NCBI GenBank assembly: GCA_002402825.1
Contig: DHGP01000018.1
Location: 9,150-73,149 of the forward strand
DNA: 64,000 nt
Source of the DNA: Firmicutes bacterium UBA4795
GTDB taxonomy: Bacteria > Bacillota > Desulfotomaculia > Desulfotomaculales > Nap2-2B
Direction of reading: 5' to 3'
Made by a program: the position numbers and the translations under genes. Below, piece by piece: positions 2,998 through 55,655 of the stretch. The first letter of the stretch is position 1. Every line of letters begins with the position of its first letter. A model generated the notes under the pieces. That model saw nothing but the letters and a program-made list of their open reading frames with translations. It made no database searches and was not told the DNA's origin.

Positions 2998-4563
2998 TCA
3001 GTCGCCGGACCTCATGACGACTATTTCCTCCTCTCTCGTAAGGCAGGCATCTTGCCTGTCCACCAGGGCTTTAACCAGTCCCTCTACGGTGTATTCCTGG
3101 GCTACAAGGTCAACCTTTAAACCGGCCTTAATTGCCGTTTGCGCGGTAACCGGTCCAATACAAGCAACAGTGACTTTGGCCAATAAATCAGCTAAATCAG
3201 AGGCGTTTAACAAAGAAATAAAATTGCGTACCGTTGAAGAACTAGTGAAGGTAATAACATGAATGTGCCCTTTGGCCAGCATAAACCGGACCAGGTCTAT
3301 ATTACCCTTATCGCCGGCTACTTGGTAAGCGGTTACTTCATCTACGTGTGTCCCTAGGTCAGTTAAGGCTGTAACCAGCACGTCTCTCGCTCCTTTTGCC
3401 CGGGGCAGTAAAACCCGTGCTCCAGGAAAAAGCCTATATTTCAGGCCGGCACTGATTTCCTCCGCCTGGTAGCTTTCCGGCACAAAGTCCACCATCAAAC
3501 CGAAATTTTCCAAAGCTTCTTTTGTGCGGGGACCTATAGCGCCCAGGTGAATATCTTTTAAGCGGCGAATATCCCCTTTTTGCTCCGCCAGCCGCCTGAA
3601 AAAAAACTTGACTCCGTTTACGCTGGTAAAAATTATCCAATCATAACTTTCTATAAAAGCAATGGCTTGATCTAAAGGGCCAAAATCATCGGGCGGGGTA
3701 ATTTTAATGGTAGGAAACTCAAAGGGCTCCCCTCCCAAAGCGGCAATCGCCCGGGATAAAGAATCGGCCTGCTCCCGGGCGCGAGTAACCATGACCCTTT
3801 TTCCAAACAAAGGTTTCTTTTCCCGCCATTTTAATTTTTCTCTTAAAGCTACTACGTCACCTACTACTACCACCACCGGGTTGGTAAGGCCTGCTACGGT
3901 TGCTTTTTGGGCAATATCAGCCAGAGTACCCACATAAGTTTGTTGTTCACTAAAAGTCCCGCAGTAGATTAGCGCGACCGGTGTTTCCGGCGCTCGTCCC
4001 GCCTGGATTATTCTGGCAGTAATTGACTTTAAATTGGCCATACCCATTAAAATTACCAGTGTTCCTACGGCTGAGGCAATTTCTTCCCAGTTAACCCCAT
4101 CCTCACCTTTATCTACGTCTTGATTGCCAGTAACAATTCCTAAACTGGAAGCATAACCCCGGTGGGTAAGCGGAATTCCCGCGTAAGCCGGTACCGCTAT
4201 GGCTGACGTAACCCCGGGTACTATTTCAAAGGTTAAATTATGCGCGGCTAAAGCTTCTGCTTCTTCGCCACCCCGGCCAAAAACGAAGGGGTCTCCTCCT
4301 TTAAGCCGGACTACCACCTTGCCTTCTTTGGCCCGGCTTACTAAAAGACGGTTAATTTCCTCTTGCCTTAAGCTGTTGCTGCCCGGTATTTTTCCTACAT
4401 AAACTAATTCGGCCTCAGGTCTGGCGTATTTAAGCAAAACCGGGTTGATTAAACGGTCGTAAATGATAACTTGCGCTTCTTGAAGACATCTTATCCCTTT
4501 TAGCGTGATCAGTCCTGGGTCGCCCGGCCCTGCACCCACCAGATAAACAATTCCTTTTAGCAC
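2998..4563 (-). CDS. cobA-hemD: Fused uroporphyrinogen-III C-methyltransferase / uroporphyrinogen-III synthase
   Basis: 521 aa. The N-terminus VGAGPGDPGLITLKG is a tetrapyrrole methylase motif. The C-terminal ~250 aa resemble HemD. Confidence 0.88.
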   Translation of the reverse strand: MLKGIVYLVGAGPGDPGLITLKGIRCLQEAQVIIYDRLINPVLLKYARPEAELVYVGKIPGSNSLRQEEINRLLVSRAKEGKVVVRLKGGDPFVFGRGGEEAEALAAHNLTFEIVPGVTSAIAVPAYAGIPLTHRGYASSLGIVTGNQDVDKGEDGVNWEEIASAVGTLVILMGMANLKSITARIIQAGRAPETPVALIYCGTFSEQQTYVGTLADIAQKATVAGLTNPVVVVVGDVVALREKLKWREKKPLFGKRVMVTRAREQADSLSRAIAALGGEPFEFPTIKITPPDDFGPLDQAIAFIESYDWIIFTSVNGVKFFFRRLAEQKGDIRRLKDIHLGAIGPRTKEALENFGLMVDFVPESYQAEEISAGLKYRLFPGARVLLPRAKGARDVLVTALTDLGTHVDEVTAYQVAGDKGNIDLVRFMLAKGHIHVITFTSSSTVRNFISLLNASDLADLLAKVTVACIGPVTAQTAIKAGLKVDLVAQEYTVEGLVKALVDRQDACLTREEEIVVMRSGD

Positions 4564-4603: not shown

Positions 4604-5527
4604 TCATTTTTGCCAGGCGTATGGCCATACGCCCCTACTGTGAAATTTTTCAGCCAGTGTTTCCCCCAGCCATGTGGCTTCGGTCACCTTCCCGGTGATA
4701 GTATTCCGGACAAGTTGTTTGCCATTTTCTGAGGCCACCATACCGGTAATGGTAAGTTTATCTCCTTCAACTTCTCCTAAAACGCCAATGGGATATTGGC
4801 AGCCGACCCCCAATTTACGTAAAAAGGCTCTTTCGGCTGTAACCGTTGCGTTGGAAGAAGGATGGTTTAAAGAAAAAGCTATTTGAGCAACTCGACTGTC
4901 CCCTGCCCTTCCTTCAATACCGATTGCTCCTTGGGCCGCCGCCGGTAAACAGATAGAAAAGGGGATTATTTCGGTGATATTTTTAGCCAGCCCTAGACGT
5001 TGCAATCCAGCCACCGCTATAACAATCCCATCTAATTTTTGCTCATCCATTTTTTTAAGCCGGCGGTCAATATTCCCGCGTAAAGGGACAATTCTGAAAT
5101 CAGGCCGGTAATAAAGCAGTTGCGCGGCGCGACGCAAACTGCTGGTGCCGATAACCGCGTTTTTAGGAAGAGAGCCTAAGGCTAGACCTGTCCGTGAAAC
5201 AAGAGCGTCTGCCGCGTTTCCCCGCGGGCATACCGCCAGCAAAACTAATCCTGTTGGCAACTGGGTGGGCAGGTCTTTTAAGCTATGCACGGCCAGATCA
5301 ATTTCCCCCTTTAAAAGAGCCAGCTCTAATTCCTTAGTAAACAAACCCATGCCACCCGCTTGAACTAAGGACGCCTTTGCAAATTGGTCACCGGTAGTTT
5401 TAATTTTAACCGGCAAAAAGTCAATATCGCGGTGTTTTTCTTTCAAACACTTAATTACCCATTCTGTCTGCCAAAGAGCTAATTTACTTCCTCTGGTACC
5501 AATAAGAAGCTTCTTTTGCATCCTCAC
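4604..5527 (-). CDS. hemC: Hydroxymethylbilane synthase (porphobilinogen deaminase)
   Basis: IGTRGSKLALWQ N-terminal signature and cofactor Cys context GVGCQYPIG. It overlaps the hemA stop, so the start may be the second Met at 5521. Confidence 0.92.
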   Translation of the reverse strand: MRMQKKLLIGTRGSKLALWQTEWVIKCLKEKHRDIDFLPVKIKTTGDQFAKASLVQAGGMGLFTKELELALLKGEIDLAVHSLKDLPTQLPTGLVLLAVCPRGNAADALVSRTGLALGSLPKNAVIGTSSLRRAAQLLYYRPDFRIVPLRGNIDRRLKKMDEQKLDGIVIAVAGLQRLGLAKNITEIIPFSICLPAAAQGAIGIEGRAGDSRVAQIAFSLNHPSSNATVTAERAFLRKLGVGCQYPIGVLGEVEGDKLTITGMVASENGKQLVRNTITGKVTEATWLGETLAEKFHSRGVWPYAWQK

Positions 5528-14479: not shown

Positions 14480-14955
14480 ATGACGGCAAAATCCGTTCCT
14501 TCTACCATACTTACGCAAAGATCAGGCAGCTTGCCGAGGTCATTAAAAAACCACCCTATCACCTGACCCCGGAACTTCTCTGACAGGCTTATGAAAAACT
14601 GGAAAAGTCAAAAGTAAGAGAGGCCGGCCCCCAAAAAGTGCTCACTGACATTATTTCCCTCATCCGCTTTGCCATAGGGGAAAGCGGTGTCCTTGAGCCG
14701 TTCGCCGAAACCGTAAATGAAAGATTTCACCGGTGGTTAGCAGAGCAAGAAAAGGCGGACCACAGGTTTACCCCAGAACAAGTAGACTGGCTGATCATGA
14801 TTAAAGACCACATAGCCACCAGCCTGGGCATTGAAATGGAAGATTTTGAACTGGCGCCATTTTACGAGAAAGGCGGAGCAGTAAAAGCATACCAGCTTTT
14901 CGGACCAGAATTAAATAATCTTTTAGCGGAATTAAATGAGGTGCTGGCCGCATGA
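14479..14955 (+). pseudogene. hsdR: C-terminal stub of a type I restriction R subunit (EcoEI_R_C-like domain) with an in-frame TGA
   Basis: ...KPPYHLTPELL-TGA(14581-14583)-QAYEKLEKSKVREAGPQKVLTDIISLIRFAIGE...FTPEQVDWLIMIKDHIATSLGIEMEDF...GGAVKAYQLFG...LNEVLAA. The helicase and nuclease parts are absent. Confidence 0.6.
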
Positions 14956-14965
14956 GGAAAATAAT

Positions 14966-15056
14966 GTAGGGGCGTATTGCCATACGCCCATATAAAGAAT
15001 GATAAAACATTTGATGTAGGGGCGTATTGCCATACGCCCCTACACGAATGTTTCAT
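14966..15056. repeat. REP doublet, family A (GTAGGGGCGTAT-TGCC-ATACGCCCCTAC)
   Basis: Copy 1 (14966-~14993) has a decayed 3' arm. Copy 2 (15016-15043) has a perfect 12-bp stem, and the flanking AAACATT/AATGTTT extend the stem. Confidence 0.85.
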
Positions 15057-15086
15057 ATAAGTAGTTAGTGAGGAGTCGGAAAGGGA

Positions 15087-16529
15087 ATGAACTTTGAAGG
15101 TCCCTACAAAATCCCCAGAAATTGGGTGTGGACGAGGCTGGGGGAAGTTTGTTTAGACCCTCAATATGGTTGGACAACAAGTGCAAAAGCGGAAGGGAAA
15201 CTTCACTTATTGAGGACTACCGATATAACTTCTGGAAATATCGATTGGTATACTGTTCCATTTTGCAAAAAAGAACCGCCTGAAAAAGAGAAATACTTGC
15301 TAAAAGATGGAGATATTGTTATTTCAAGGTCAGGTTCTGTTGGCCATAGTCATCTTATAACAAATCCTAAAGAAGCTATATTTGCATCGTATTTTATTCG
15401 GTTTAGACCTTTAATTAATGAAAAATATTTAGCAATTTTCTTAAAGAGCCCATCTTATTGGAACTCTATCTCAGAAAAAAGCCTTGGGATAGCTATGCCT
15501 AATGTTAACGCATCCAAGCTAAAACAAATTCCCCTCCCCCTCCCTCCCCTTGCCGAGCAGCACTGCATTGTGGCCAGGATTGAGGAACTTTTTACTAAGC
15601 TGGATGCCGGCGTGACGGCGTTAAAAAAAGTAAGGGCACAACTAAAACGTTATCGTCAGGCGGTTTTGAAATACGCCTTTGAAGGAAAATTAACTGAAGA
15701 ATGGCGGGAAAATCATAAGAATGAGCTGGAGCCTGCCGCCGTAATTTTGGAGCGGATAAAAGAAGAACGAAAAAAAACCGCTAAAGGAAAACTTAAAGAA
15801 CTGCCGCCACCGGATACGTCAGATTTAACTGAAATACCTGAAGGGTGGGTATGGACGAGGCTGGGGGAGATTGTTACCGATGTTGAAAAGATCAATCTTA
15901 AGATAGAACCGAATAAAGAGTTTATTTATTTGGATATTGCTTCAATTGATAACTGTCAACAAAAAATAACAAATCCTAAAAAACACATAGGTAAAGACGC
16001 TCCCTCTAGAGCAAGACAGCTTGTTAAGTCAGGGGATATTTTATTTTCTACCGTTAGAACCTATCTTAAAAATATTGCTATTATAAACGAAATCTATGAT
16101 GGGCAGATAGCATCTACAGGGTTTTGTATTATAAGACCTCATAGTTTATTAGATAATAAAATGGTATTTTATTGGGTTCAAACAGAGGAATTTGTAAATC
16201 CGTTAAATAAGATTCAGCGAGGCACAAGCTATCCTGCTGTACGGGATTTTGATGTTTTTACTCAGTTTATTCCCCTTCCTCCCCTTGCCGAACAACATAA
16301 AATTGTTGAAGAAATTGAACGCCGTTTTTCTATCGCTGACGAAGTTGAAAAAATCGTGGAACAAAGCCTCAAGCAGGCGGAAAGATTGCGCATGAGCATT
16401 TTAAAAAGAGCCTTTGAAGGGAAACTAGTTCTCCAGAATCCTAACGACGAGCCGGCCGAAAAATTGTTAGAGCGGATTAAATATGCAAGAGATCAAAAAT
16501 TTAAACCTATTAAATCTGACGAATACTGA
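15087..16529 (+). CDS. hsdS: Type I R-M specificity subunit, two target-recognition domains, apparently intact
   Basis: Duplicated architecture: IPRNWVWTRLGEV / IPEGWVWTRLGEI, plus conserved helices PLPPLAEQHCIVARIEELF / LPPLAEQHKIVEEIERRF. Confidence 0.88.
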   Translation: MNFEGPYKIPRNWVWTRLGEVCLDPQYGWTTSAKAEGKLHLLRTTDITSGNIDWYTVPFCKKEPPEKEKYLLKDGDIVISRSGSVGHSHLITNPKEAIFASYFIRFRPLINEKYLAIFLKSPSYWNSISEKSLGIAMPNVNASKLKQIPLPLPPLAEQHCIVARIEELFTKLDAGVTALKKVRAQLKRYRQAVLKYAFEGKLTEEWRENHKNELEPAAVILERIKEERKKTAKGKLKELPPPDTSDLTEIPEGWVWTRLGEIVTDVEKINLKIEPNKEFIYLDIASIDNCQQKITNPKKHIGKDAPSRARQLVKSGDILFSTVRTYLKNIAIINEIYDGQIASTGFCIIRPHSLLDNKMVFYWVQTEEFVNPLNKIQRGTSYPAVRDFDVFTQFIPLPPLAEQHKIVEEIERRFSIADEVEKIVEQSLKQAERLRMSILKRAFEGKLVLQNPNDEPAEKLLERIKYARDQKFKPIKSDEY

Positions 16530-16593
16530 GAGAGAATAATTTGAAAGAAATGGCTCCATAGAGGTTTTGTGACTGGAAAGGAATGGTTATAAA

Positions 16594-17184
16594 ATGAAAT
16601 TCAATAATGAAATACACCATCGAAGGTCAATTAGATTAAAGGATTATGATTATTCACGGGCAGGTGCGTATTTCGTGACAATATGCACACACAATAGGGA
16701 ATGTCTATTTGGTGAGATTTTAAGTGGGAAGATGATAATAAATGATTTTGGAAGAATTGCCTACGATGAGTGGCTTAATACATTTCAGATACGAAGCAAT
16801 GTTGAATTAGATAAATTTGTCGTGATGCCCAACCATATCCACGGCATCATGATTATAAATTGTAGGGGCGTATGGCCATACGCCCCTACATTAGGATTAC
16901 AATATAATCGCGGGATGGGTATTTCGCAATGTCACCCTACAGCGGAATTTCGGTCACCATCCCAAACGATTGGTGCAATCGTGCGAGGTTATAAGTCAGC
17001 AGTTACTAAAAAAATAAATACATTGCGAAATACACCCAAAATGCCCTTTTGGCAACGTGCTTATTACGAACATGTGATTAGAAATGAAGATGATTTAAAC
17101 CAGGTTCGAGAATACATTATAAACAATCCCCTAAAATGGGAGCTAGATCGGGAAAATCCCAGTAATATAGAAAAAAGGAAGTAG
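16594..17184 (+). CDS. REP-associated tyrosine transposase-like protein (Y1/HUH, IS200/IS605 superfamily)
   Basis: HUH motif MPNHIHGIM and C-terminal FWQRAYYEHVIRNEDDLNQVREYIINNP. 196 aa. Wedged between hsdS and hsdM. Confidence 0.8.
   Translation: MKFNNEIHHRRSIRLKDYDYSRAGAYFVTICTHNRECLFGEILSGKMIINDFGRIAYDEWLNTFQIRSNVELDKFVVMPNHIHGIMIINCRGVWPYAPTLGLQYNRGMGISQCHPTAEFRSPSQTIGAIVRGYKSAVTKKINTLRNTPKMPFWQRAYYEHVIRNEDDLNQVREYIINNPLKWELDRENPSNIEKRK
16862..16889. repeat. Family A REP, perfect 28-nt palindrome, inside the RAYT-like CDS
   Basis: GTAGGGGCGTATGG|CCATACGCCCCTAC, translated in frame as CRGVWPYAPT. Confidence 0.9.
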
Positions 17185-17192
17185 GATATAAT

Positions 17193-18648
<1,456 letters not shown>

Positions 18649-32513: not shown

Positions 32514-32690
32514 GTCGTCAGATGTCGGACGTCGGAAGACATCTAATGTACATTTTCGCAATTGATTTCTAACGTCTGACGACTGGCGACCGAATTTACG
32601 GACGGCAGTCATCAGGGTTATATGGTAGAAATTCGCTTTAGCAAACTCTATCTATTCTGACGTCTGACGTCTAACGACTGACGACCGAAT
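32514..32690. repeat. Heptamer-array elements, family C (GACGTCA-type), three copies in the mraY-murD spacer
   Basis: C1 is 32514-32543 (GTCGTCA GATGTCG GACGTCG GAAGACA). C2 (32568-32595) and C3 (32656-32690) are in inverted orientation (TCTGACGTCTGACGTCTAACGACTGACGACCGAAT). Confidence 0.85.
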
Positions 32691-32706
32691 GGGGAGGTAA
32701 TTTAAA

Positions 32707-34089
32707 ATAGGTAAAGTATTAGTAATCGGAGCAGGTAAAACAGGTTTGGCGGTAGCCTGGTTTTTAAACCGCAAAGGCATTGAGGTAGTGCTTACAGATA
32801 AACAAAACATTGCCCCAGATAAACTGGCTGCTTTAGAGGTCGTCGGTCGCCAGACGTCAGACGTCAGGGGGGACGCTGGCGTAAAGGTACATTTTCCTGA
32901 CTACCCCATAATCAAACCTGGCGATTATTCCCTGGTAGTGGTAAGCCCGGGAGTGCCGCTGGATATACCTCCGGTAGTTCAGGCTAAAAATTTAAATATT
33001 CCGGTTATAAGCGAACTGGAACTGACTTACTGGTACGCTTTAGCTCCTATTGTGGCTATTACCGGTACTAACGGTAAAACAACCACCACTAGTTTAGTGG
33101 GGGAAATTTGTAAAGACGCCGGTTTAAATACCCTGGTGGCCGGTAATATTGGCCTGCCACTAATAGCAAAAATAGAAAACTATACCACCCATGATCTCGT
33201 TGTGGCGGAAGTAAGCAGCTTTCAACTCGAAACAACTGTTTTTTTCCGGCCCCATGTGGCCGTCATCTTAAATATTTCGTCTGATCACCTGGACCGGCAT
33301 AAAACTTTAGCTAATTATACCGCTGCCAAAACAAAAATCTTTGAAAATCAAAAGGCAGGCGATTATACCATTTTGAATTATGATGATCCTTATACCCGAA
33401 GTCTGGCGAGTTATTCACCAGGAACAGTTATATTTTTTAGCCGTCGGCGTATTTTAGAAAAAGGGGTTTTTACGCAAAATGATTGGATTATCAGTAATCT
33501 TACCGGGAAAATAGAGCCCGTTTTACCGGTAAAAGAAATTCAACTGCCCGGTGCACATAACCTGGAAAACGTCCTGGCCGCTGCGGCCAGCGCCTTGGTT
33601 TTAGAAATTGAACCTCTGAAAGTAGCTAAAACTTTACGCCTCTTTAAAGGGGTAGCTCACCGTCTGGAATTTGTGGCTGAAATTAACGGGGTGCGTTATA
33701 TAAACGATTCTAAAGGAACCAACCCGGAAGCCAGCATTAAAGCCTTGGAAGCATTTGCTGCCCCCATTATTTTACTAGCCGGCGGCAAAAACAAAGGGAA
33801 TGATTTTACTGCTTTAGCGCAAAAGATTAAAGAAAAGGTCCGGGTATTGATTACCCTGGGGGAATGTGCCGGTGAACTAGAGAAAGAAACTAAACTGGCC
33901 GGGGTAGTTAAGGTAATACGGGCGCATGATCTAAGGCAGGCAGTTTTTTCAGCCTACCAGCTGGCCCAACCAGGGGAAGTAGTTTTATTATCTCCTGCTT
34001 GCGCCAGTTGGGATATGTTTCAAGATTACGTGGAAAGAGGCAACCTATTTCGAAAAACTGTTCTGGAATTTTCCGCCAAGCAATTATAA
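32707..34089 (+). CDS. murD: UDP-MurNAc-L-Ala:D-Glu ligase; probable non-canonical ATA start
   Basis: GTNGKTTT P-loop. The N-terminal Rossmann loop VIGAGKTG lies upstream of the first canonical start (TTG 32746). An in-frame stop is at 32698-32700, and SD GGGGAGG lies 9 nt before ATA 32707. Confidence 0.85.
   Translation: MGKVLVIGAGKTGLAVAWFLNRKGIEVVLTDKQNIAPDKLAALEVVGRQTSDVRGDAGVKVHFPDYPIIKPGDYSLVVVSPGVPLDIPPVVQAKNLNIPVISELELTYWYALAPIVAITGTNGKTTTTSLVGEICKDAGLNTLVAGNIGLPLIAKIENYTTHDLVVAEVSSFQLETTVFFRPHVAVILNISSDHLDRHKTLANYTAAKTKIFENQKAGDYTILNYDDPYTRSLASYSPGTVIFFSRRRILEKGVFTQNDWIISNLTGKIEPVLPVKEIQLPGAHNLENVLAAAASALVLEIEPLKVAKTLRLFKGVAHRLEFVAEINGVRYINDSKGTNPEASIKALEAFAAPIILLAGGKNKGNDFTALAQKIKEKVRVLITLGECAGELEKETKLAGVVKVIRAHDLRQAVFSAYQLAQPGEVVLLSPACASWDMFQDYVERGNLFRKTVLEFSAKQL
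32838..32867. repeat. Family C heptamer element copy C4 inside murD, in frame
   Basis: GGTCGTC GGTCGCC AGACGTC AGACGTC AG is the reverse complement of C3 at 27/30 positions. It encodes VVGRQTSDVR. Confidence 0.85.
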
Positions 34090-40298: not shown

Positions 40299-41159
40299 AT
40301 GAGGTTTTCAAGGAACAAACAACTAAAAAAATTTAAGTTAAACGCGGGAGAAAGCATATTTTTTATTTTCCTGGTTATTCTGGCGGCTTATATTTTCTGG
40401 CGGTCATCTTTATTTGAAGTTAAGGAAATTTTTGTCCAGGGCAACCATTCTTTAACCACCACCGAGATTGTAGCTTTATCCCGGATTAATGAGGGGACAA
40501 ATATTTTTAAAGTTAATTTATCCCAGGCAGGCGAAAGAATTAAGGCTCTGCCGTTGGTTAAAGAAGTGCATTTAACCCGTAAATTTCCTTCCCAAATAAT
40601 TATAGAAATAAAAGAACGCTACCCGGTGGCCTTGGTCCCGGTAAAGGGTGGTTTTGCAGAAGTAGATAGAGAAGGGGTATATTTAAGGCCAGGTAAAATA
40701 AGCTCTTCAGGACTGCCGGTAATAATGGTAACCAAAGAAAAAGCATCTAATGGTAGGTCAATCAGCGGCACAGGCCAAGGGCAGGCTTCGGGAAGGCAGG
40801 ATGCCTACCCTACAAGCCTACCTTCCCTTCAGCCTGTGGTTGACAGTAAACCGGCCCAAGCTCTTAAACCAGGGCAGGTTTTTGACTTTCCCGGGTTAAA
40901 AATTGCTTTAAAAGTAATTAATGCCTTGCCCCGCGAATTAATAACCAGTCTTTCCGAAGTTTACGTGGACAAACAAGGACAAATATTCCTTTACCACTTA
41001 AGCGGGGTAGAATGTCGCTTGGGTCAACCGGTAAATATAACTAAGAAGGGGATAATCCTTAACCAACTTTTTAGCCAGCTTAAAAACACGCGCCAGTTTG
41101 AATATATTGATATTTCCCTTGCCGGTTCACCGGTGGTAAAATATAAGGATGGTAAATAA
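40299..41159 (+). CDS. ftsQ: FtsQ/DivIB cell-division protein carrying a repeat-derived insertion
   Basis: N-terminal TM, a POTRA-like region (FEVKEIFVQGNHSLTTTEI), and the position after murA. Confidence 0.8.
   Translation: MRFSRNKQLKKFKLNAGESIFFIFLVILAAYIFWRSSLFEVKEIFVQGNHSLTTTEIVALSRINEGTNIFKVNLSQAGERIKALPLVKEVHLTRKFPSQIIIEIKERYPVALVPVKGGFAEVDREGVYLRPGKISSSGLPVIMVTKEKASNGRSISGTGQGQASGRQDAYPTSLPSLQPVVDSKPAQALKPGQVFDFPGLKIALKVINALPRELITSLSEVYVDKQGQIFLYHLSGVECRLGQPVNITKKGIILNQLFSQLKNTRQFEYIDISLAGSPVVKYKDGK
40782..40836. repeat. Family B element copy B1 (32-nt core plus inverted partial copy) in frame in ftsQ
   Basis: The core is CAGGCTTCGGGAAGGCAGGATGCCTACCCTAC (40782-40813). The arm 40817-40836 pairs back to 40782-40800 (16 bp with an internal loop). 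It encodes QASGRQDAYPTSLPSLQP. Confidence 0.85.
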
Positions 41160-41868
41160 AGCTATATTTAAAAATAAAAGTATTTACTTTATAATGGCTT
41201 TTATTGCGCTAAGCCTGGGTTTTATTTTTGCTTTGCAGTTTCGCACTAATACCATGGTTAAACAAAGTCCTCCCTTACAGCAAACACAAGAATTGGCGGC
41301 GCGTTTAAAAACTGCCCGGGAGGAAAATGAGGCTTTGCAAAACCGGGTGGATAAATTACGCCGGCAATTAGACCAGGTTACCGATAGCTTTTACTTAACC
41401 ACCCTGCACCAAGAATTAAGCAAAACCCGTATTGCGGCTGGAATGACGGAATTAACCGGTCCTGGAATAGAAGTTACTCTTAGTGACAGTAATAAAAAAA
41501 TTCAGCCTGGTGAAAATCCCAATCTTTATGTCTTGCACGATGAAGATATTTTAAAGGTTATTAATGAATTAAAGGCGGCCGGCGCAGAAGCTATAGCCCT
41601 TAATGGTCAGCGTCTTTTAGCCACCAGTGAGATTCGCTGTCTTGGTCCCACCGTGCTTACTAATAAAAATCAGCGGCTTACTCCTCCCTTTGTAATTACG
41701 GCCATTGGTAATCCTGGTAATTTGGTTAACGCTTTGCAAATGCGCGGGGGAATAGTGGATCAGCTTCGTTTCTGGGAAATTCAAGTAACGATTAAGTCTA
41801 TGCCCAATATTATTATACCAGCTTATACCGGCCAGTTGCGCTTTGATTACGCCAAACCGGTAAGTTAA
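41149..41868 (+). CDS. DUF881-family division-associated membrane protein
   Basis: N-terminal TM, a coiled coil, and TGPGIEVTL...DEDILKVINELKAAGAEAIALNGQR. Confidence 0.75.
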   Translation: MVNKAIFKNKSIYFIMAFIALSLGFIFALQFRTNTMVKQSPPLQQTQELAARLKTAREENEALQNRVDKLRRQLDQVTDSFYLTTLHQELSKTRIAAGMTELTGPGIEVTLSDSNKKIQPGENPNLYVLHDEDILKVINELKAAGAEAIALNGQRLLATSEIRCLGPTVLTNKNQRLTPPFVITAIGNPGNLVNALQMRGGIVDQLRFWEIQVTIKSMPNIIIPAYTGQLRFDYAKPVS

Positions 41869-41927: not shown

Positions 41928-42662
41928 ATGAACCAAAAATTATACCTTTCTGTTTTTTTAGTGGCCTTAATTATAGGTTTAATGGCGGCCTTGCAGTTCC
42001 GCACCACCAACTTTATAGAGCAAGGTGTTCCCCTTGGCCGATCCCAGGAATTATCCGTTGATTTAAACCAGTTAAATGCAGAGAAAAAACAATTGGAGAC
42101 AGAAGTTAAAGATTTAACGCAAAAAATTCAGCAGACCACTAAAGGACAGGCTTCGGGCAGGCAGGATGCCTACCCTACTTTGGCAAAAGAGGTTCTAGTA
42201 GGTGAATTAAAAAAAGCCCGATTAGGTGCTGGCCTGACCGCGGTATCGGGGCCGGGTATTGAAATAACCCTGGATAATCCTTCGGCTGAACAAAACAAAG
42301 GCCTGGAAGATACCATGTTTGCTATCCGGGATGAGGATTTACTGCACCTGGTAAACGAACTAAACGGGGCCGGAGCAGAAGCAGTGTCAATTAACGGACA
42401 AAGAATTCTGGCTACCAGTGAAATCCGTTGGGCCGCTCCTTTTATTAACGTTAATTTAACCAGAATAGCCCCGCCTTACCATATACTGACGATTGGTTCA
42501 CCCAAAAATTTAACCAGCGCTTTAGAAATATCCGGTGGATTGGCTGAATATTTACAAAGCCTTGGCGCGAAGGTAAAAATTCAACCTTATGAAAATTTAA
42601 CCGTTCCTGGTTATACCGCCCCAATTGAGTTTCGCTACGCCAAACCAACAAAAGGAGAGTAG
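41928..42662 (+). CDS. DUF881-family protein (paralogue) carrying a repeat-derived insertion
   Basis: SGPGIEITL...DEDLLHLVNELNGAGAEAVSINGQR. Confidence 0.75.
   Translation: MNQKLYLSVFLVALIIGLMAALQFRTTNFIEQGVPLGRSQELSVDLNQLNAEKKQLETEVKDLTQKIQQTTKGQASGRQDAYPTLAKEVLVGELKKARLGAGLTAVSGPGIEITLDNPSAEQNKGLEDTMFAIRDEDLLHLVNELNGAGAEAVSINGQRILATSEIRWAAPFINVNLTRIAPPYHILTIGSPKNLTSALEISGGLAEYLQSLGAKVKIQPYENLTVPGYTAPIEFRYAKPTKGE
42147..42178. repeat. Family B element copy B2 in frame in the DUF881 gene
   Basis: CAGGCTTCGGGCAGGCAGGATGCCTACCCTAC is 31/32 identical to B1. It encodes QASGRQDAYPT. Confidence 0.9.
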
Positions 42663-45932: not shown

Positions 45933-47981
45933 TTGAAAAATTATCCCCGCGAAAAAATTCGTAATATTGGGGTGGTTGCACACGGGGGAGCGGGCAAAAC
46001 CTCCCTGGTAGAGGCCATGCTTTATAACACGGGAGCAATTACCAGATTAGGCCGGGTAGAAGATGGGACGACCACGGCTGACTACCACCCTGAAGAAATC
46101 AACCGTAAGGTAACTATTCACCTCAGCCTGGTACCTTGTGATTGGCAGGACTGTAAACTTAATATTTTAGACACCCCCGGCTACGCTGATTTTATAGGTG
46201 AAGTATACTCGGCTTTACGGGTAGTGGATACAGCCCTTTTTGTGGTTTCAGCCGTGGACGGCGTAGAAGTACAGACGGAGGTTATATGGGAATACGCGGC
46301 CCGGGCTGGTTTACCGGCCCTGGTATTTGTAAACAAAATGGACCGGGAAAACGCTAATTTTTTTAACGTCCTAACCGAATTAAAAGATAAATTAAAGGCT
46401 AATTTTGTCCCCGTTCAGCTTCCGGTTAGTCAGGCTTTGGGCAGTCAGGATGCCCACCCTACTGATTTTACTGGTATTGTTGATCTGATTACCCAAAAGG
46501 TCTACACATATCCGGATAACGGCAAAAGCCACCAAGAAATCCCGGTGCCTGATGATTTAAAAGAAACAATGGCCAGTTACCACGAAAAGCTAGTTGAAGC
46601 AGCAGTAGAAACCAACGATGAATTAATGTTAAAGTATTTAGAAGGGGAAGAGTTAAGTAATGAAGAAATAATTTTGGGCTTAAAAAACGGTATTGCCCAA
46701 GCCAAAGTGATTCCAGTGCTGTGTGGTACAGCCACTAAAAATATGGCGGTGATAAATTTAATGGATATTATTGCTAATTATTACCCGGCTCCGGCTCCAG
46801 CTAATGATGCTCCTTTTTCGGCCCTGGTGTTTAAAACCTTAGTTGACCCTTACGTAGGAAAAATGAACTTCATCCGGGTTTATACGGGAACGCTAAAAAA
46901 CGATATGCTGGTTTACAACAGCACCAAAGAAAAAACAGAAAAAATAGGTCAAATCCTTTATGTCCGGGGTAAAAACTCAGTCCCCACGGCAGAGGTATCG
47001 GCAGGAGATATGGCCGTGTTGGTTAAACTGCAACACACCGCTACTGCTGATACCCTTTGCGAAAAAGATAAGGGTGAAATATTGGAAGGGATTACCTTCC
47101 CAAAACCGGCTCTTTCCGTGGCTATTTCCCCCAAAAGTAAAGGGGATGAAGATAAATTAGGTAATGCCTTAAACAGGCTTTTAGAAGAAGATTTGACGGT
47201 GCAAATTGAAAAAAACCTGGAAACCAAAGAAAACATCCTTACGGGAATGGGTGAGCTACACCTGGAAATTATTCTAGAAAGATTGAAAAGAAAATACGGT
47301 GTCGATGTTTCCATGGAACCACCTAAAGTACCTTACCGGGAAACAATTCGTAAGACCGTTACCATGGAAGGCAAATATAAAAAGCAAACCGGCGGCCATG
47401 GTCAGTACGGGCACGTTTGGCTGCGCCTGGAACCATTGGCAGAAGGCGAATTTGAATTTACCGAAGAAATTTTTGGGGGGGCGGTGCCCAAGCAATATAT
47501 TCCAGGGGTAGAAAAAGGGGTCCGGGAATCTCTTACCGAAGGAGTGCTGGCTGGTTACCCGGTTACAGGAGTAAAAGTAGTCTTGTACGACGGTTCCTAT
47601 CATCCGGTAGACTCTTCCGAACTGGCCTTTAAAATTGCGGCGGCCATGGCTTTTAAAAAAGGGGTGCAAAATGCCGCCCCGGTACTGTTAGAACCAATTA
47701 TGTACGTTGAAGTAACCGTACCGGAGAACTTTATGGGTGACGTAATTAGTGATTTAAACACCAAGCGCGGCCGCATCCTGGGCATGGAACCAGCAGGCAA
47801 CAAAACAGTGGTCAAGGCAATAGCTCCGCTGGCTGAGTTAACACGTTACGCTATTGACTTAAAATCAATGACCCAGGGCAGAGGGTCCTTTGAAATGAAA
47901 TTTAACAACTACGAAGAGGTTCCGGCCCGCCTGGCAGAAGAAATAATTAAAAAAGCCAAGGAGACAACCAACCAGCAGTAA
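45933..47981 (+). CDS. Elongation factor G paralogue (EF-G2-like) carrying a repeat-derived insertion
   Basis: G1 AHGGAGKTS, G3 DTPGYADF and G4 NKMD, with domains II-V present. TTG start. Confidence 0.85.
   Translation: MKNYPREKIRNIGVVAHGGAGKTSLVEAMLYNTGAITRLGRVEDGTTTADYHPEEINRKVTIHLSLVPCDWQDCKLNILDTPGYADFIGEVYSALRVVDTALFVVSAVDGVEVQTEVIWEYAARAGLPALVFVNKMDRENANFFNVLTELKDKLKANFVPVQLPVSQALGSQDAHPTDFTGIVDLITQKVYTYPDNGKSHQEIPVPDDLKETMASYHEKLVEAAVETNDELMLKYLEGEELSNEEIILGLKNGIAQAKVIPVLCGTATKNMAVINLMDIIANYYPAPAPANDAPFSALVFKTLVDPYVGKMNFIRVYTGTLKNDMLVYNSTKEKTEKIGQILYVRGKNSVPTAEVSAGDMAVLVKLQHTATADTLCEKDKGEILEGITFPKPALSVAISPKSKGDEDKLGNALNRLLEEDLTVQIEKNLETKENILTGMGELHLEIILERLKRKYGVDVSMEPPKVPYRETIRKTVTMEGKYKKQTGGHGQYGHVWLRLEPLAEGEFEFTEEIFGGAVPKQYIPGVEKGVRESLTEGVLAGYPVTGVKVVLYDGSYHPVDSSELAFKIAAAMAFKKGVQNAAPVLLEPIMYVEVTVPENFMGDVISDLNTKRGRILGMEPAGNKTVVKAIAPLAELTRYAIDLKSMTQGRGSFEMKFNNYEEVPARLAEEIIKKAKETTNQQ
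46431..46462. repeat. Family B element copy B3 (diverged) in frame in the EF-G paralogue
   Basis: CAGGCTTTGGGCAGTCAGGATGCCCACCCTAC is 29/32 identical to B2. It encodes QALGSQDAHPT in the same frame as B1 and B2. Confidence 0.8.
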
Positions 47982-52574: not shown

Positions 52575-52602
52575 GTAGGGGCATATAGCTATACGCCCCT
52601 AC
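52575..52602. repeat. Family A REP between argD and argF
   Basis: GTAGGGGCATAT-AGCT-ATACGCCCCTAC with one mismatch, and an AAAATTGTAG left flank. Confidence 0.9.
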
Positions 52603-53590: not shown

Positions 53591-53618
53591 GTAGGGGCGT
53601 ATTGCTATACGCCCCTAC
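53591..53618. repeat. Family A REP between argF and argG
   Basis: GTAGGGGCGTAT-TGCT-ATACGCCCCTAC, perfect stem, with the same AAAATTGTAG left flank. Confidence 0.9.
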
Positions 53619-54968: not shown

Positions 54969-55655
54969 TTGAAGTCTACGGCCGAAAAAGTAAGTGAACT
55001 GGAAAAGGCAATGATGGAGCTTGTTTACCAATCCAGGCTTACGGAAATGAGACTAAAACAATTAGCGGAGGAAATGATAGATTTCAAGGATGAAATGAAA
55101 GAGTTTAAGGATGAAATGAAAGAGTTTAAGGATGAAATGAAAGAGTTTAAGGATGAAATGAAAGAGTTTAAGGATGAAATGAAAGAGTTTAAGGATGAAA
55201 TGAGGGCCTCCAAGAAAGAAATGGATAAAAAATGGGGTGAATTGGCTAAAAAGATGGGCACCCTGATTGAGGATATTTTTATCCCTTCCTTAGACCTAAC
55301 CATAGAAAAATACTTTAACGTTACTCCACATGACGTAATGCCGCGCCGTAAAGTGAGAAAAAATGGTAAAAGCAAAACCATGGAAATAGATATCCTTGCC
55401 TTAGCCGATAACCAGGCCTTTGTGGTGGAAGTAAAGGCTTCACCAAACAGGTTAGAGTATGTTTATGATTTTATCGAAAAAATAAAAACCATACCTGATT
55501 TTATTCCGGAAATTAAAAACTACAAAGTAATACCCATCTATGCCGCCCTGGATATGGAAGAAAGAACCATAAGTCTCCTTACCAAAAACAATATTTACGC
55601 CATGATTTTAAGAGGAGACATTTTAGAAATAATTAATTTTAAAGACGTAAGTTAA
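54969..55655 (+). CDS. Coiled-coil protein with a C-terminal PD-(D/E)XK nuclease-like fold (DUF3782-like)
   Basis: The N-terminal heptad-repeat region includes (FKDEMKE)x6. The C-terminal EIDILA...VVEVKAS gives a D...ExK arrangement. TTG start. Confidence 0.5.
   Translation: MKSTAEKVSELEKAMMELVYQSRLTEMRLKQLAEEMIDFKDEMKEFKDEMKEFKDEMKEFKDEMKEFKDEMKEFKDEMRASKKEMDKKWGELAKKMGTLIEDIFIPSLDLTIEKYFNVTPHDVMPRRKVRKNGKSKTMEIDILALADNQAFVVEVKASPNRLEYVYDFIEKIKTIPDFIPEIKNYKVIPIYAALDMEERTISLLTKNNIYAMILRGDILEIINFKDVS
55083..55203 (+). repeat. 21-bp in-frame tandem repeat, ~5.8 copies, four of them identical
   Basis: TTYAAGGATGAAATGAAAGAG units begin at 55083, 55104, 55125, 55146, 55167 and 55188 (the last is partial). 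Confidence 0.95.

Follow-up and report, generated by a model that had tools for sequence, protein, structure and literature searches.

Family B repeats and their host genes

We analyzed a 64-kb stretch of DNA (the window) from Firmicutes bacterium UBA4795 (GenBank assembly GCA_002402825.1, contig DHGP01000018.1, positions 9,150 to 73,149 of the forward strand), in which a short palindromic repeat, here called family B, lies inside the cell-division gene ftsQ (divIB) and other protein-coding genes. A 32-nt stretch of the repeat was sought with up to three mismatches, and chance levels were taken from 100 shuffles. An earlier note on this DNA had placed a 32-mer of the repeat at 40782–40813 in an ftsQ/divIB open reading frame (ORF), with near-copies in two unrelated genes. 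The letters at 40782–40813, CAGGCTTCGGGAAGGCAGGATGCCTACCCTAC, are exactly those reported and lie inside ORF 40299..41159 (+), which contains the peptide GQASGRQDAYPTSLPSLQP and which Pfam also identifies as FtsQ (POTRA_1 and FtsQ_DivIB_C). Both near-copies were recovered: the match at 42147–42178 has one mismatch (31/32; 0 expected) and lies in the second DUF881 gene (41928..42662, +), and that at 46431–46462 is 28/32 identical (the repeat finder gives 46426–46462) and lies in the gene for an EF-G family protein, an EF-G paralogue (45933..47981, +). For the 19-nt core the window holds four matches compared to 0.04 expected, the fourth and weaker one at 3038–3056 (−) in a Pfam-identified uroporphyrinogen methyltransferase/synthase fusion gene (cobA-hemD; TP_methylase and HEM4; 2998..4563, −).

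All four copies sit within long, Pfam-supported ORFs, are co-oriented with the gene and are read in the same relative frame, giving GRQDAYPT in both ftsQ and the DUF881 gene, GSQDAHPT in the EF-G paralogue and DRQDACLT in the cobA-hemD fusion. The ftsQ core (40790..40813, +), delimited from the sequence and a DNA fold, is the hairpin GGGAAGGCA-GGA-TGCCTACCC followed by TAC. Alignment with relatives defines in-frame insertions of 27 nt in the DUF881 gene (42151..42177, +), whose core at 42155–42178 equals the clade consensus exactly, and of 24 nt in the EF-G paralogue (46435..46458, +), whose core at 46439–46462 has two mismatches to the consensus. The remaining copy, found by the core search, is the diverged sequence GGACAGGCAAGATGCCTGCCTTAC at 3038..3061 (−), which reads VDRQDACLT near the C-terminus of its ORF.

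Filled and empty alleles among relatives

Syntenic DNA from five relatives (loci carry L numbers), covering murD...ftsQ-DUF881-DUF881-DUF1290-ftsZ-murJ-like-EF-G, was aligned at 88–92% pairwise identity. This is one genomic region, and the clustering of sites in the dcw (division and cell-wall) genes reflects which region was comparable. At the ftsQ site, DNA and protein alignments place a stretch of 51 nt (17 codons, the GQASGRQDAYPTSLPSL region; 40776..40826, +) that is absent from L114, L115, L117 and L119; it consists of middle arms resembling another repeat, family D, plus the family B core. The empty allele of L114 and L115 is a perfect 8-bp hairpin, GGCACAGGC-TTC-CAGCCTGTGGTTGAC, of which L117 and L119 carry decayed versions. 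Two filled alleles exist: L116 has a clean addition of 24 nt (GGGCAGGCAGGATGCCTACCCTAC) in the hairpin loop, and the window has +51 nt (40776–40826).

Three further sites vary in the same manner. The DUF881 gene is empty in all five relatives (GGACAGG/CTGAGGC, with the slash at the insertion point) and filled in the window only, where +27 nt add SGRQDAYPT(L) after K-G-Q-A. The EF-G paralogue is empty in L117 and L118 (GGTCAAG/CCAATGAT) and filled by +24 nt in the window and L114; because these two share the variant CCCACCC, this appears to be one older event. At the 3' end of murD it is the window that is empty, its protein ending ...EFSAKQL, and L114 and L115 that are filled, with +27 nt and the ending ...ELSASSRQDAYPTK(QL). 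Every filled/empty length difference at the four sites is a multiple of 3 nt. Counted by site, at least five insertion events fall in about 14 kb within this small clade. These filled and empty alleles show that family B is mobile or recombining DNA, as the earlier note had proposed.

A neighbor-joining tree of the ftsQ–ftsZ region gave the grouping (window,(L114,L115)), L116, (L117,L119). The ftsQ filling is read in frame c (GRQDAYPT) in the window and in frame b (GQAGCLPY) in L116, and the window's sister lineage L114/L115 is empty. Because the sister is empty and the filled forms differ in both frame and structure, the alleles point to two independent hits on one ftsQ loop, which is a more parsimonious account than one gain followed by several precise losses.

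Two other irregularities were seen in the aligned region. At the murD 3' end and adjoining intergenic DNA of L117 (1545–1680), where L114 and L115 carry their insert, lies an unrelated (GGAGGTT)n array followed by its inverted complement, (AACCTCT/AACCTCC)n. In L115 (8429–9047) the first DUF881 gene is called as two ORFs of 122 and 94 aa with no Pfam match, compared to a single gene of 234–239 aa in the relatives; a frameshift or an assembly error is possible in this SCADC metagenome contig.

Hairpin architecture and nesting

The family B element is a repetitive extragenic palindrome (REP), with a GTAG tag and an 8-bp hairpin on the strand opposite to that in which its host genes are read. The core, GGGCAGGCA-GGA-TGCCTACCC, is paired at 8 of 9 positions around a 3-nt loop (−6.4 to −6.9 kcal/mol in DNA folds). 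At both 40813 and 42178 the minus strand reads GTAG-GGTAGGCATCCTGCC..., with the GTAG directly abutting the stem, and the complementary CTAC is invariant in nearly all copies. Family B therefore has the structural features of GTAG-tagged REPs, namely a short imperfect palindrome and GT[AG]G at the 5' foot of the hairpin.

In ftsQ this core is the innermost part of a larger structure. The earlier note had described an in-frame palindrome of 55 nt; the in-frame hairpin is there, but a pattern scan and fold give a complete nested palindrome of 70 nt (40769..40838, +), closed by the outer stem CACAGGC (40769–40775)/GCCTGTG (40832–40838). Likewise, the segment 40817–40836, which had been taken for an inverted partial copy of the core, is an inverted arm and resembles an inverted copy of CAGGCTTCGGGAAGG, but is really made up of the right-hand arms of two enclosing hairpins. 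With its flanking GCGG and GTTGAC the palindrome occupies 40765–40844 and encodes FtsQ residues about 157–182. This 80-nt element folds as DNA at −19.3 kcal/mol with three nested stems; an 81-nt ftsQ region folds at −16.6 kcal/mol (z = −2.26).

From the outside inward, the ftsQ element comprises a family C stem, family D-like arms and the family B core. Family C, GTGG-CACAGGCT-TCC-AGCCTGTG, is a GTGG-tagged REP-type hairpin with unfilled copies at L003:1633 and L110:103; its arms form the ftsQ outer stem, and the same hairpin stands unfilled at the orthologous site of L114/L115. Family D, GAGCAGGCT-GGA-AGCCTGCCC-TAC, is empty in L062, L043 and L094, and a family B core occupies its loop in L002, L006 and L094. 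Many family B copies sit inside C or D hairpin loops, and empty C and D hairpins occur dispersed. Across 14 composite copies, which we picked ourselves and in which the inner stem is invariant through selection by the search pattern, 92.9% of outer-stem cells are paired and 4 of 8 pairs have changed on both sides, a level reached in 0 of 500 shuffles.

The insert in the FtsQ protein

We aligned ten FtsQ homologues. The three closest orthologues (270 aa, 75–81% identical) are without 17 residues around GQASGRQDAYPTSLPSL, and the fourth (P0003) has GFGQAGCLPYEPG at the insert site, which is the same DNA core in a different frame. Five distant homologues are without the whole linker of ~40 residues. 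A sensitive search over 1.8 billion representatives gave 9338 proteins of the FtsQ family; among the best 149 of these other than P0003, none carried the insert peptide in any frame version, and their median length was 250 aa compared to 286 aa here. FtsQ therefore does have extra residues, as the earlier note had stated, but about 36–40 of them relative to distant homologues and not ~45, of which 17 are specific to this genome. These comparisons also support its view that the peptide is not a conserved protein motif: near orthologues and the 149 further representatives are without it, the L116 frame differs, and no distant taxa with the same peptide in diverged codons turned up among the homologues compared. 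The frame change at one site, together with the orthologues that are without the peptide, rules such a motif out.

An AlphaFold2 model of FtsQ built from the ten-sequence alignment had a mean pLDDT of 77.5, with values of ~90 on either side of the insert. Residues 147–184 had a pLDDT <50 and no secondary structure in this model. The element-encoded residues (about 157–182) are thus predicted to lie in a disordered linker between the POTRA and C-terminal domains, in line with the loop that the earlier note had suggested. The sequence QDAYPTSLPSLQPVVDSK is a tryptic peptide spanning an insert.

Frame, orientation and placement within genes

In the forward orientation all three frames of family B are open (RAGRMPTL, GQAGCLPY and GRQDAYPT), compared to one of three in reverse, where TAG stops close the other two. 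From ORF and Pfam context we verified ten intragenic events: the four in the window, murD in L114/L115, ftsQ in L116, a DUF1285 protein and an alpha/beta-hydrolase in L089, an AroK-AroB linker in L069 and a D-type copy in a DNA methylase in L062. Every one of these events is in the forward orientation, and frame c accounts for seven of them. Hand-calculated binomial p values for this small, non-random sample are ~0.02 for the excess of frame c and ~0.06 for the uniform orientation, assuming that only stop-free frames survive.

The placement of the inserts within proteins is peripheral in several cases. Compared with Thermus EF-G, the EF-G insert adds 8 residues at QLPI-GRED-TFSG, and the DUF881 insert is N-terminal of the segment alignable to the solved DUF881 domain 3gmg; both lie outside conserved or solved cores. 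The copies in the cobA-hemD fusion and in murD are close to the C-termini. In L069 (minus strand, element at reverse-complement position 4857; SCADC1_2_3 contig 34) the core, in the frame RAGRMPTL, lies between shikimate kinase and 3-dehydroquinate synthase within a single frame open for 575 codons from stop to stop, and the repeat may bridge, or have created, this AroK-AroB fusion.

Junctions and target sequence

A GCY triplet precedes the left junction at every one of the four filled/empty sites (ftsQ and DUF881, CAGGCT; EF-G, CAAGCC; murD, TCCGCC). Filled alleles continue GCT-TCG/TTG... at this junction. The reading of the junctions depends on alignments with short shared bases. They fit insertion beside a short preferred sequence, by analogy with the single-strand transposition of IS200/IS605 elements, and are equally compatible with microhomology-guided copying. 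They also agree with what is reported for TnpA_REP, the transposase of REPs, which is guided by GTAG and cleaves at a CT (PMC8266576). At three sites the frame of the target would set the frame of the peptide, CAG-GCT (Gln-Ala) leading to frame c and NCA-GGC-T in the ftsQ hairpin leading to frame b, GQAGCLPY.

Copies beyond the window

The exact 19-mer GGCAGGATGCCTACCCTAC was found at 113 or more loci in a scan of one genome per species. The loci listed include many contigs of SCADC1_2_3 and Firmicutes UBA4053 and many from Cyanobacteria, and the matches listed also include Holophagae/Terriglobia, Planctomycetes, Verrucomicrobia and one Sphingobacteriales metagenome-assembled genome. The examined blocks of Peptococcaceae SCADC1_2_3 and UBA4053 hold at least 24 family B copies with two or fewer mismatches. 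The earlier note had held that a lack of further genomic copies of its 32-mer would speak against a mobile element; there are four in the window and many in relatives. The usual Firmicute form is (A)ACCACAGGCTTC-GGGCAGGCAGGATGCCTACCC-TAC-GAGCCTGTGCCAC, in which the inner hairpin and TAC lie inside the outer stem CACAGGCT/AGCCTGTG. In a related genome ~85% of copies are outside convincing ORFs, compared to four of four intragenic in the window; copy number and intragenic fraction are both estimates from biased sequence blocks. At its right end the window matches contig 2 of Peptococcaceae bacterium SCADC1_2_3 with 94% identity, and the sequencing runs that contain the sequence are hydrocarbon and oil-facility metagenomes.

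The core also occurs in other arrangements. In Cyanobacteria (for example, L011, L028, L033 and L059) an identical core sits inside a different, longer palindrome, TAGACATCTCC...AAAGGCAGGCAGGATGCCTACCCTAC...GGAGATGTCTA, and also forms tandem arrays with periods of 28–45 nt (L005, L035, L073, L081 and L107). Tandem arrays of near-copies were seen in Holophagae and Planctomycetes (L004, L087 and L097).

A candidate transposase and its family A repeats

The window encodes a REP-associated tyrosine transposase (RAYT/TnpA_REP) of 196 aa at 16594..17184 (+), recognized by Pfam, with the HUH motif PNHIHG, FWQR and the Tyr motif REYIINNP. It scores 28.5 bits with Pfam Y1_Tnp (cut-off 23) and, in two stretches split by an insert, 75.7 bits with NCBIfam REP_Tyr_transpos (NF047646), just under the cut-off of 80; its homologues number more than 7993, and many bear the name RayT. 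The insert is a double-foot REP of another family, family A (GTAGGGGCGTATGGCCATACGCCCCTAC, 16862..16889, +), in frame between the HuH and Tyr motifs and reading RGVWPYAPT. Other family A copies are at 4611–4638 (−), 14966–14993, 15016–15043, 52575–52602 and 53591–53618. In the subclass 2.4 tnpA_REP genes already described, an in-frame double-foot REP lies inside the gene and the motifs are NH[IFV]H, WQ and YIxNNP (Quentin et al. 2018; PMC6006769). The window ORF matches this subclass exactly, with NHIH, WQ, YIINNP and the in-frame REP between HuH and Tyr.

A given tnpA_REP usually goes with a single REP family (PMC6006769), although the E. coli TnpA_REP shows some cross-activity if the repeats have GTAG and a few structural features in common (PMC8266576). 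On sequence grounds the window RAYT is a candidate for the mobilizing enzyme, with family A as its cognate repeat. The earlier note had suggested that a RAYT-type enzyme might move the ftsQ element, the opposite strand of which begins GTAGGG; the GTAGGG and a RAYT gene are both present, but a direct link to family B was not borne out. Searched with tblastn against the gathered loci, the window RAYT gave no match beyond the window. A metagenome scan for a B-type hairpin 12–42 nt from HUH codons found none; the control 29-mer GCTTCGGGCAGGCAGGATGCCTACCCTAC, common in SCADC1_2_3, likewise gave none, hence the clade is evidently uncovered and the scan uninformative.

A second lead lies in Firmicutes UBA4053 (DFZP01000076.1; L110 1–591, minus strand), where one ORF contains a family B core, a family C hairpin and, after them, ...YKRNLPHWEAPGNIYFITFRT..., with ...EFRTYKRNLPHWEAPGNIYFITFRTVKGLTLPE at the block edge. 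The upstream part of this ORF has another REP-like peptide, STGKMPVPP. The ORF (LPHW...YFITFR), which we take to resemble the N-terminus of another Y1-transposase class, had no profile match (none in NCBIfam for a 45-aa fragment and none in Pfam for the longer ORF). It may be the start of another Y1-type transposase adjoining its REPs.

Several observations concern family A and the surroundings of the RAYT gene. The gene lies between hsdS and hsdM, inside a type I restriction-modification locus (14638–18035) that comprises an hsdR C-terminal fragment (14638–14955), hsdS (15087–16529) and hsdM (from 17193); the hsdM ORF is only 280 aa long, matches positions 2–138 of the 311-position N6_Mtase profile and is possibly truncated or frameshifted. 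This locus also holds two family A REPs, within 14966–15043. The copy at 4611–4638 (−) overlaps the 3' end of hemC (porphobilinogen deaminase; ORF 4604..5527, −), the protein of which ends ...HSRGVWPYAWQK, a further tail encoded by a REP. In RAYT homologues from many phyla the equivalent peptide RGVLQYAPT is nearly invariant, and some homologues have extra partial family A copies or copies in another frame (GAYCNTPL).

Other repeats in the window

Two repeats of other kinds were found. Units rich in GACGTC/GTCGTC (for example, CTGACGTCTGACGTCTAACGACTGACGACC) form inverted repeats at 32515–32867, upstream of murD; one arm, at 32838–32867, lies in the murD 5' coding region, where it reads VVGRQTSDVRGD, and may represent a second kind of palindromic element in coding sequence. 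At 55035–55244, within an ORF of 228 aa (54969..55655, +), seven tandem 21-nt units encode (KEFKDEM)n.

Origin of the insertions

We consider it likely that the ftsQ element is a short, non-autonomous GTAG-tagged REP that inserted into coding DNA and landed in an older family C hairpin of the linker. Before family B arrived, the family C hairpin would already have been part of the reading frame, in a linker that is specific to the lineage and joins the POTRA and C-terminal domains, and landing in the hairpin loop would have created the three-level nested palindrome. The core may move as single-stranded hairpin DNA that a Y1 HUH transposase of the RAYT/TnpA_REP type cuts and rejoins, with GTAG as the guide and CT as the cleavage site, on the model of E. 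coli REPs and IS200/IS605. Purifying selection would leave the copies that keep the frame, are free of stops and occupy a loop, linker or tail. Most copies would read GRQDAYPT because of the frame that the CAG-GCT (Gln-Ala) target already had, and the peptide would be a tolerated passenger with no functional motif.

Several observations weigh against this account. A RAYT tied to family B was not found, the RAYT of the window carrying family A; among the best 120 matches to a chimeric RAYT query with GQASGRQDAYPT, none had a family B peptide in the HuH–Tyr loop; and a motif search of ~0.8 Mb of family B-flanking loci found no RAYT-like ORF, the window RAYT being recovered as a positive control. 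Target-site duplications are absent from the alignments of all four filled/empty sites, and no excision variant was seen in assembled contigs. The junctions are uneven (+24, +27 and +51 nt), with neighboring bases often substituted, and because they are neither clean nor uniform no single precise cut-and-paste unit can be defined. In addition, T.G wobbles in the outer stem pair only on the sense (CTAC) strand, which weighs against RAYT action because the GTAG strand is the expected RAYT substrate. The frame and orientation statistics rest on ~10 events and one compared region.

Many of these points would suit the main alternative, an origin without a transposase, in which hairpin-prone palindromes spread by template switching or short-patch gene conversion at replication or repair, using GGCT/CT microhomology, and nested palindromes and compensatory stem changes arise by intrastrand templated synthesis. 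The heterogeneous junctions with adjacent substitutions, the absence of target-site duplications and the missing cognate RAYT are all in keeping with it; the left junctions have GCY/CAGGCT in common with the left arm of the element itself, as microhomology would lead one to expect, and at the one place where the ftsQ core departs from the consensus (GGGAAGG) the right arm has the mirroring CCTTCCC. We nonetheless think this origin unlikely, since the GTAG tag and hairpin geometry are those that define RAYT substrates, a RAYT gene is present in the genome, and an identical 19-nt core across several phyla is easier to obtain with a sequence-specific enzyme than with generic slippage. Gene conversion solely between ftsQ and DUF881 is ruled out, as both copies match the genome-wide consensus, and a miniature inverted-repeat transposable element was rejected for want of target-site duplications and IS-type terminal repeats and for a unit of only 24–51 nt. 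The uniform sense orientation of intragenic copies, which places a CTAC-strand hairpin in the mRNA, and the wobbles that suit folding of that strand only could also mean that the hairpins serve as nucleic-acid signals in a division/cell-wall operon (mRNA stabilizers, RNase targets, attenuators or gyrase/IHF sites), with the peptide as a by-product; the EF-G copy has been kept since the split of the window and L114, and REPs are reported to affect mRNA stability and termination (PMC3733652, PMC6006769). This is improbable to a further degree: very close relatives that share the operon structure differ in which sites are filled, which shows that no hairpin is required, reverse-frame stops account fully for the orientation bias, and an Rfam scan of 38–48 kb (E up to 1) found nothing relevant.

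Selection on the peptide itself has been largely refuted and is very hard to credit. In favor of ...GRQDAYPT... as a recruited functional module, such as a flexible spacer or interaction tag of divisome proteins, one can cite the presence of three insert-bearing genes (murD in relatives, ftsQ and DUF881) in the dcw cluster and the over-representation of frame c (7/10); but the dcw clustering reflects the comparable region only, and L116 has the same DNA at the same ftsQ site in another frame. The peptide is also absent from the nearest orthologues and the 149 FtsQ representatives, is predicted to be disordered and recurs in unrelated proteins, namely the EF-G paralogue, a tetrapyrrole enzyme, a methylase and a DUF1285 protein. 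Because repeats break assemblies, the insert might finally be an assembly or chimera artifact of metagenome sequence, and contigs do end at the DUF881 copy, and depth in the metagenome contigs spikes 7- to 9-fold over the cores. We give this practically no credence: a 936-nt contig (run X1; 40495–41430) and a 933-nt contig (run X3), from metagenomes of different studies and years (2014 and 2025), span the ftsQ element with 0 differences, the frames are open in all four genes, and relatives carry analogous inserts at the same sites.

Going beyond insertion of a non-autonomous REP, family B may possibly be a currently active, site-directed unit that targets REP-hairpin loops and CAGGCT look-alikes in genes, has hit the same ftsQ codon independently in sister lineages and builds nested palindromes; we hold this only tentatively. 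Its partner might then be of a Y1 class other than that of the family A RAYT, with the UBA4053 ORF described above as a lead. If true, the clade would provide natural before/after pairs for the target, strand and junction rules of REP/RAYT integration, for which we know of no direct observation in any organism. The same partner enzyme might also explain the 19-nt core common to Cyanobacteria, Acidobacteria, Planctomycetes, Verrucomicrobia and this Firmicute.

Relation to known elements and significance

The closest description is that of the CGTC and GTAG REPs, reported in several phyla and in frame within genes by Di Nocera, De Gregorio & Rocco (2013; PMC3733652), the text of which covers intragenic copies, nesting in small target palindromes and GTGG tag variants. 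As described in that text, GTAG REPs are, like family B, imperfect palindromes of 20–40 nt with GTAG at one foot, some copies of which lie whole within ORFs with the frame unbroken; their copies are many, dispersed and mostly intergenic, as is estimated for the related genome here. The nesting habit reported for T. roseum GTAG-23 and A. variabilis GTAG-15 is the same as here, and family C corresponds to the GTGG variants. These likenesses to GTAG-1 to GTAG-24 are by text description and not by consensus sequence. The text names Proteobacteria, Cyanobacteria, Chloroflexi and the PVC group and no Firmicutes, compared to a Peptococcaceae lineage here, and it emphasizes DNA-repair genes where we find cell-division and translation genes. 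Three allelic states at one codon position set the present case apart from what it describes.

Other systems are similar in part. Rickettsia palindromic elements (RPEs) are likewise selfish palindromic DNA in frame in genes for functional proteins, to which they add surface or loop peptides. Their host is an obligate intracellular alphaproteobacterium, and RPE-1 inserts are longer, about 100–150 nt. RPEs were the first in-frame palindromic insertions in genes to be described (Ogata et al. 2000, as cited in PMC3733652). The R. conorii RPE sequences end in CGTC, according to the text of PMC3733652, whereas family B has the tag GTAG/CTAC and a Peptococcaceae-related host; this tag and the non-Rickettsiales host rule out membership of the RPE family, which works alike only. 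The subclass 2.4 REPtrons (PMC6006769) accommodate the window RAYT and family A; family B, in contrast, is single-footed and is neither in nor beside any RAYT found. In having a core and an inverted partial copy that form one long hairpin, the ftsQ element resembles REPINs (Bertels & Rainey 2011, PMC3116915), but the fit is ambiguous: its arms are unequal and better explained by three nested, different hairpins (C, D-like and B), and the DUF881, EF-G and cobA-hemD copies are single. The proposed mechanism is that of IS200/IS605 elements, with a hairpin-recognizing Y1 HUH enzyme, a short specific site and no target-site duplication; unlike these, family B encodes nothing, is ~24–29 nt long and has less precise junctions than IS608.

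The phenomenon is real and recently active, but other bacteria have furnished earlier examples of its kind. The novelty is modest and lies in the Firmicute host (a phylum in neither survey's text), the genes hit, the three allelic states and the evidence for recent, repeated and apparently targeted insertion. For annotation, the peptides GRQDAYPT, GQAGCLPY, RAGRMPTL and RGVWPYAPT, in proteins of this phylum and others, mark repeat insertions and not conserved motifs or domain boundaries. The three ftsQ states (the unfilled hairpin, a core, and a nested core read in a different frame), the five or more events in 14 kb and the shared left junction provide unusually clear comparative evidence for recent, targeted REP insertion, a process that is poorly documented experimentally, and the present alleles could guide the biochemistry of RAYT integration. 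They indicate that REP-type selfish DNA can colonize essential division and translation genes of a strictly anaerobic Firmicute and leave those genes undestroyed, by way of disordered linkers and of stop-free orientations and frames.

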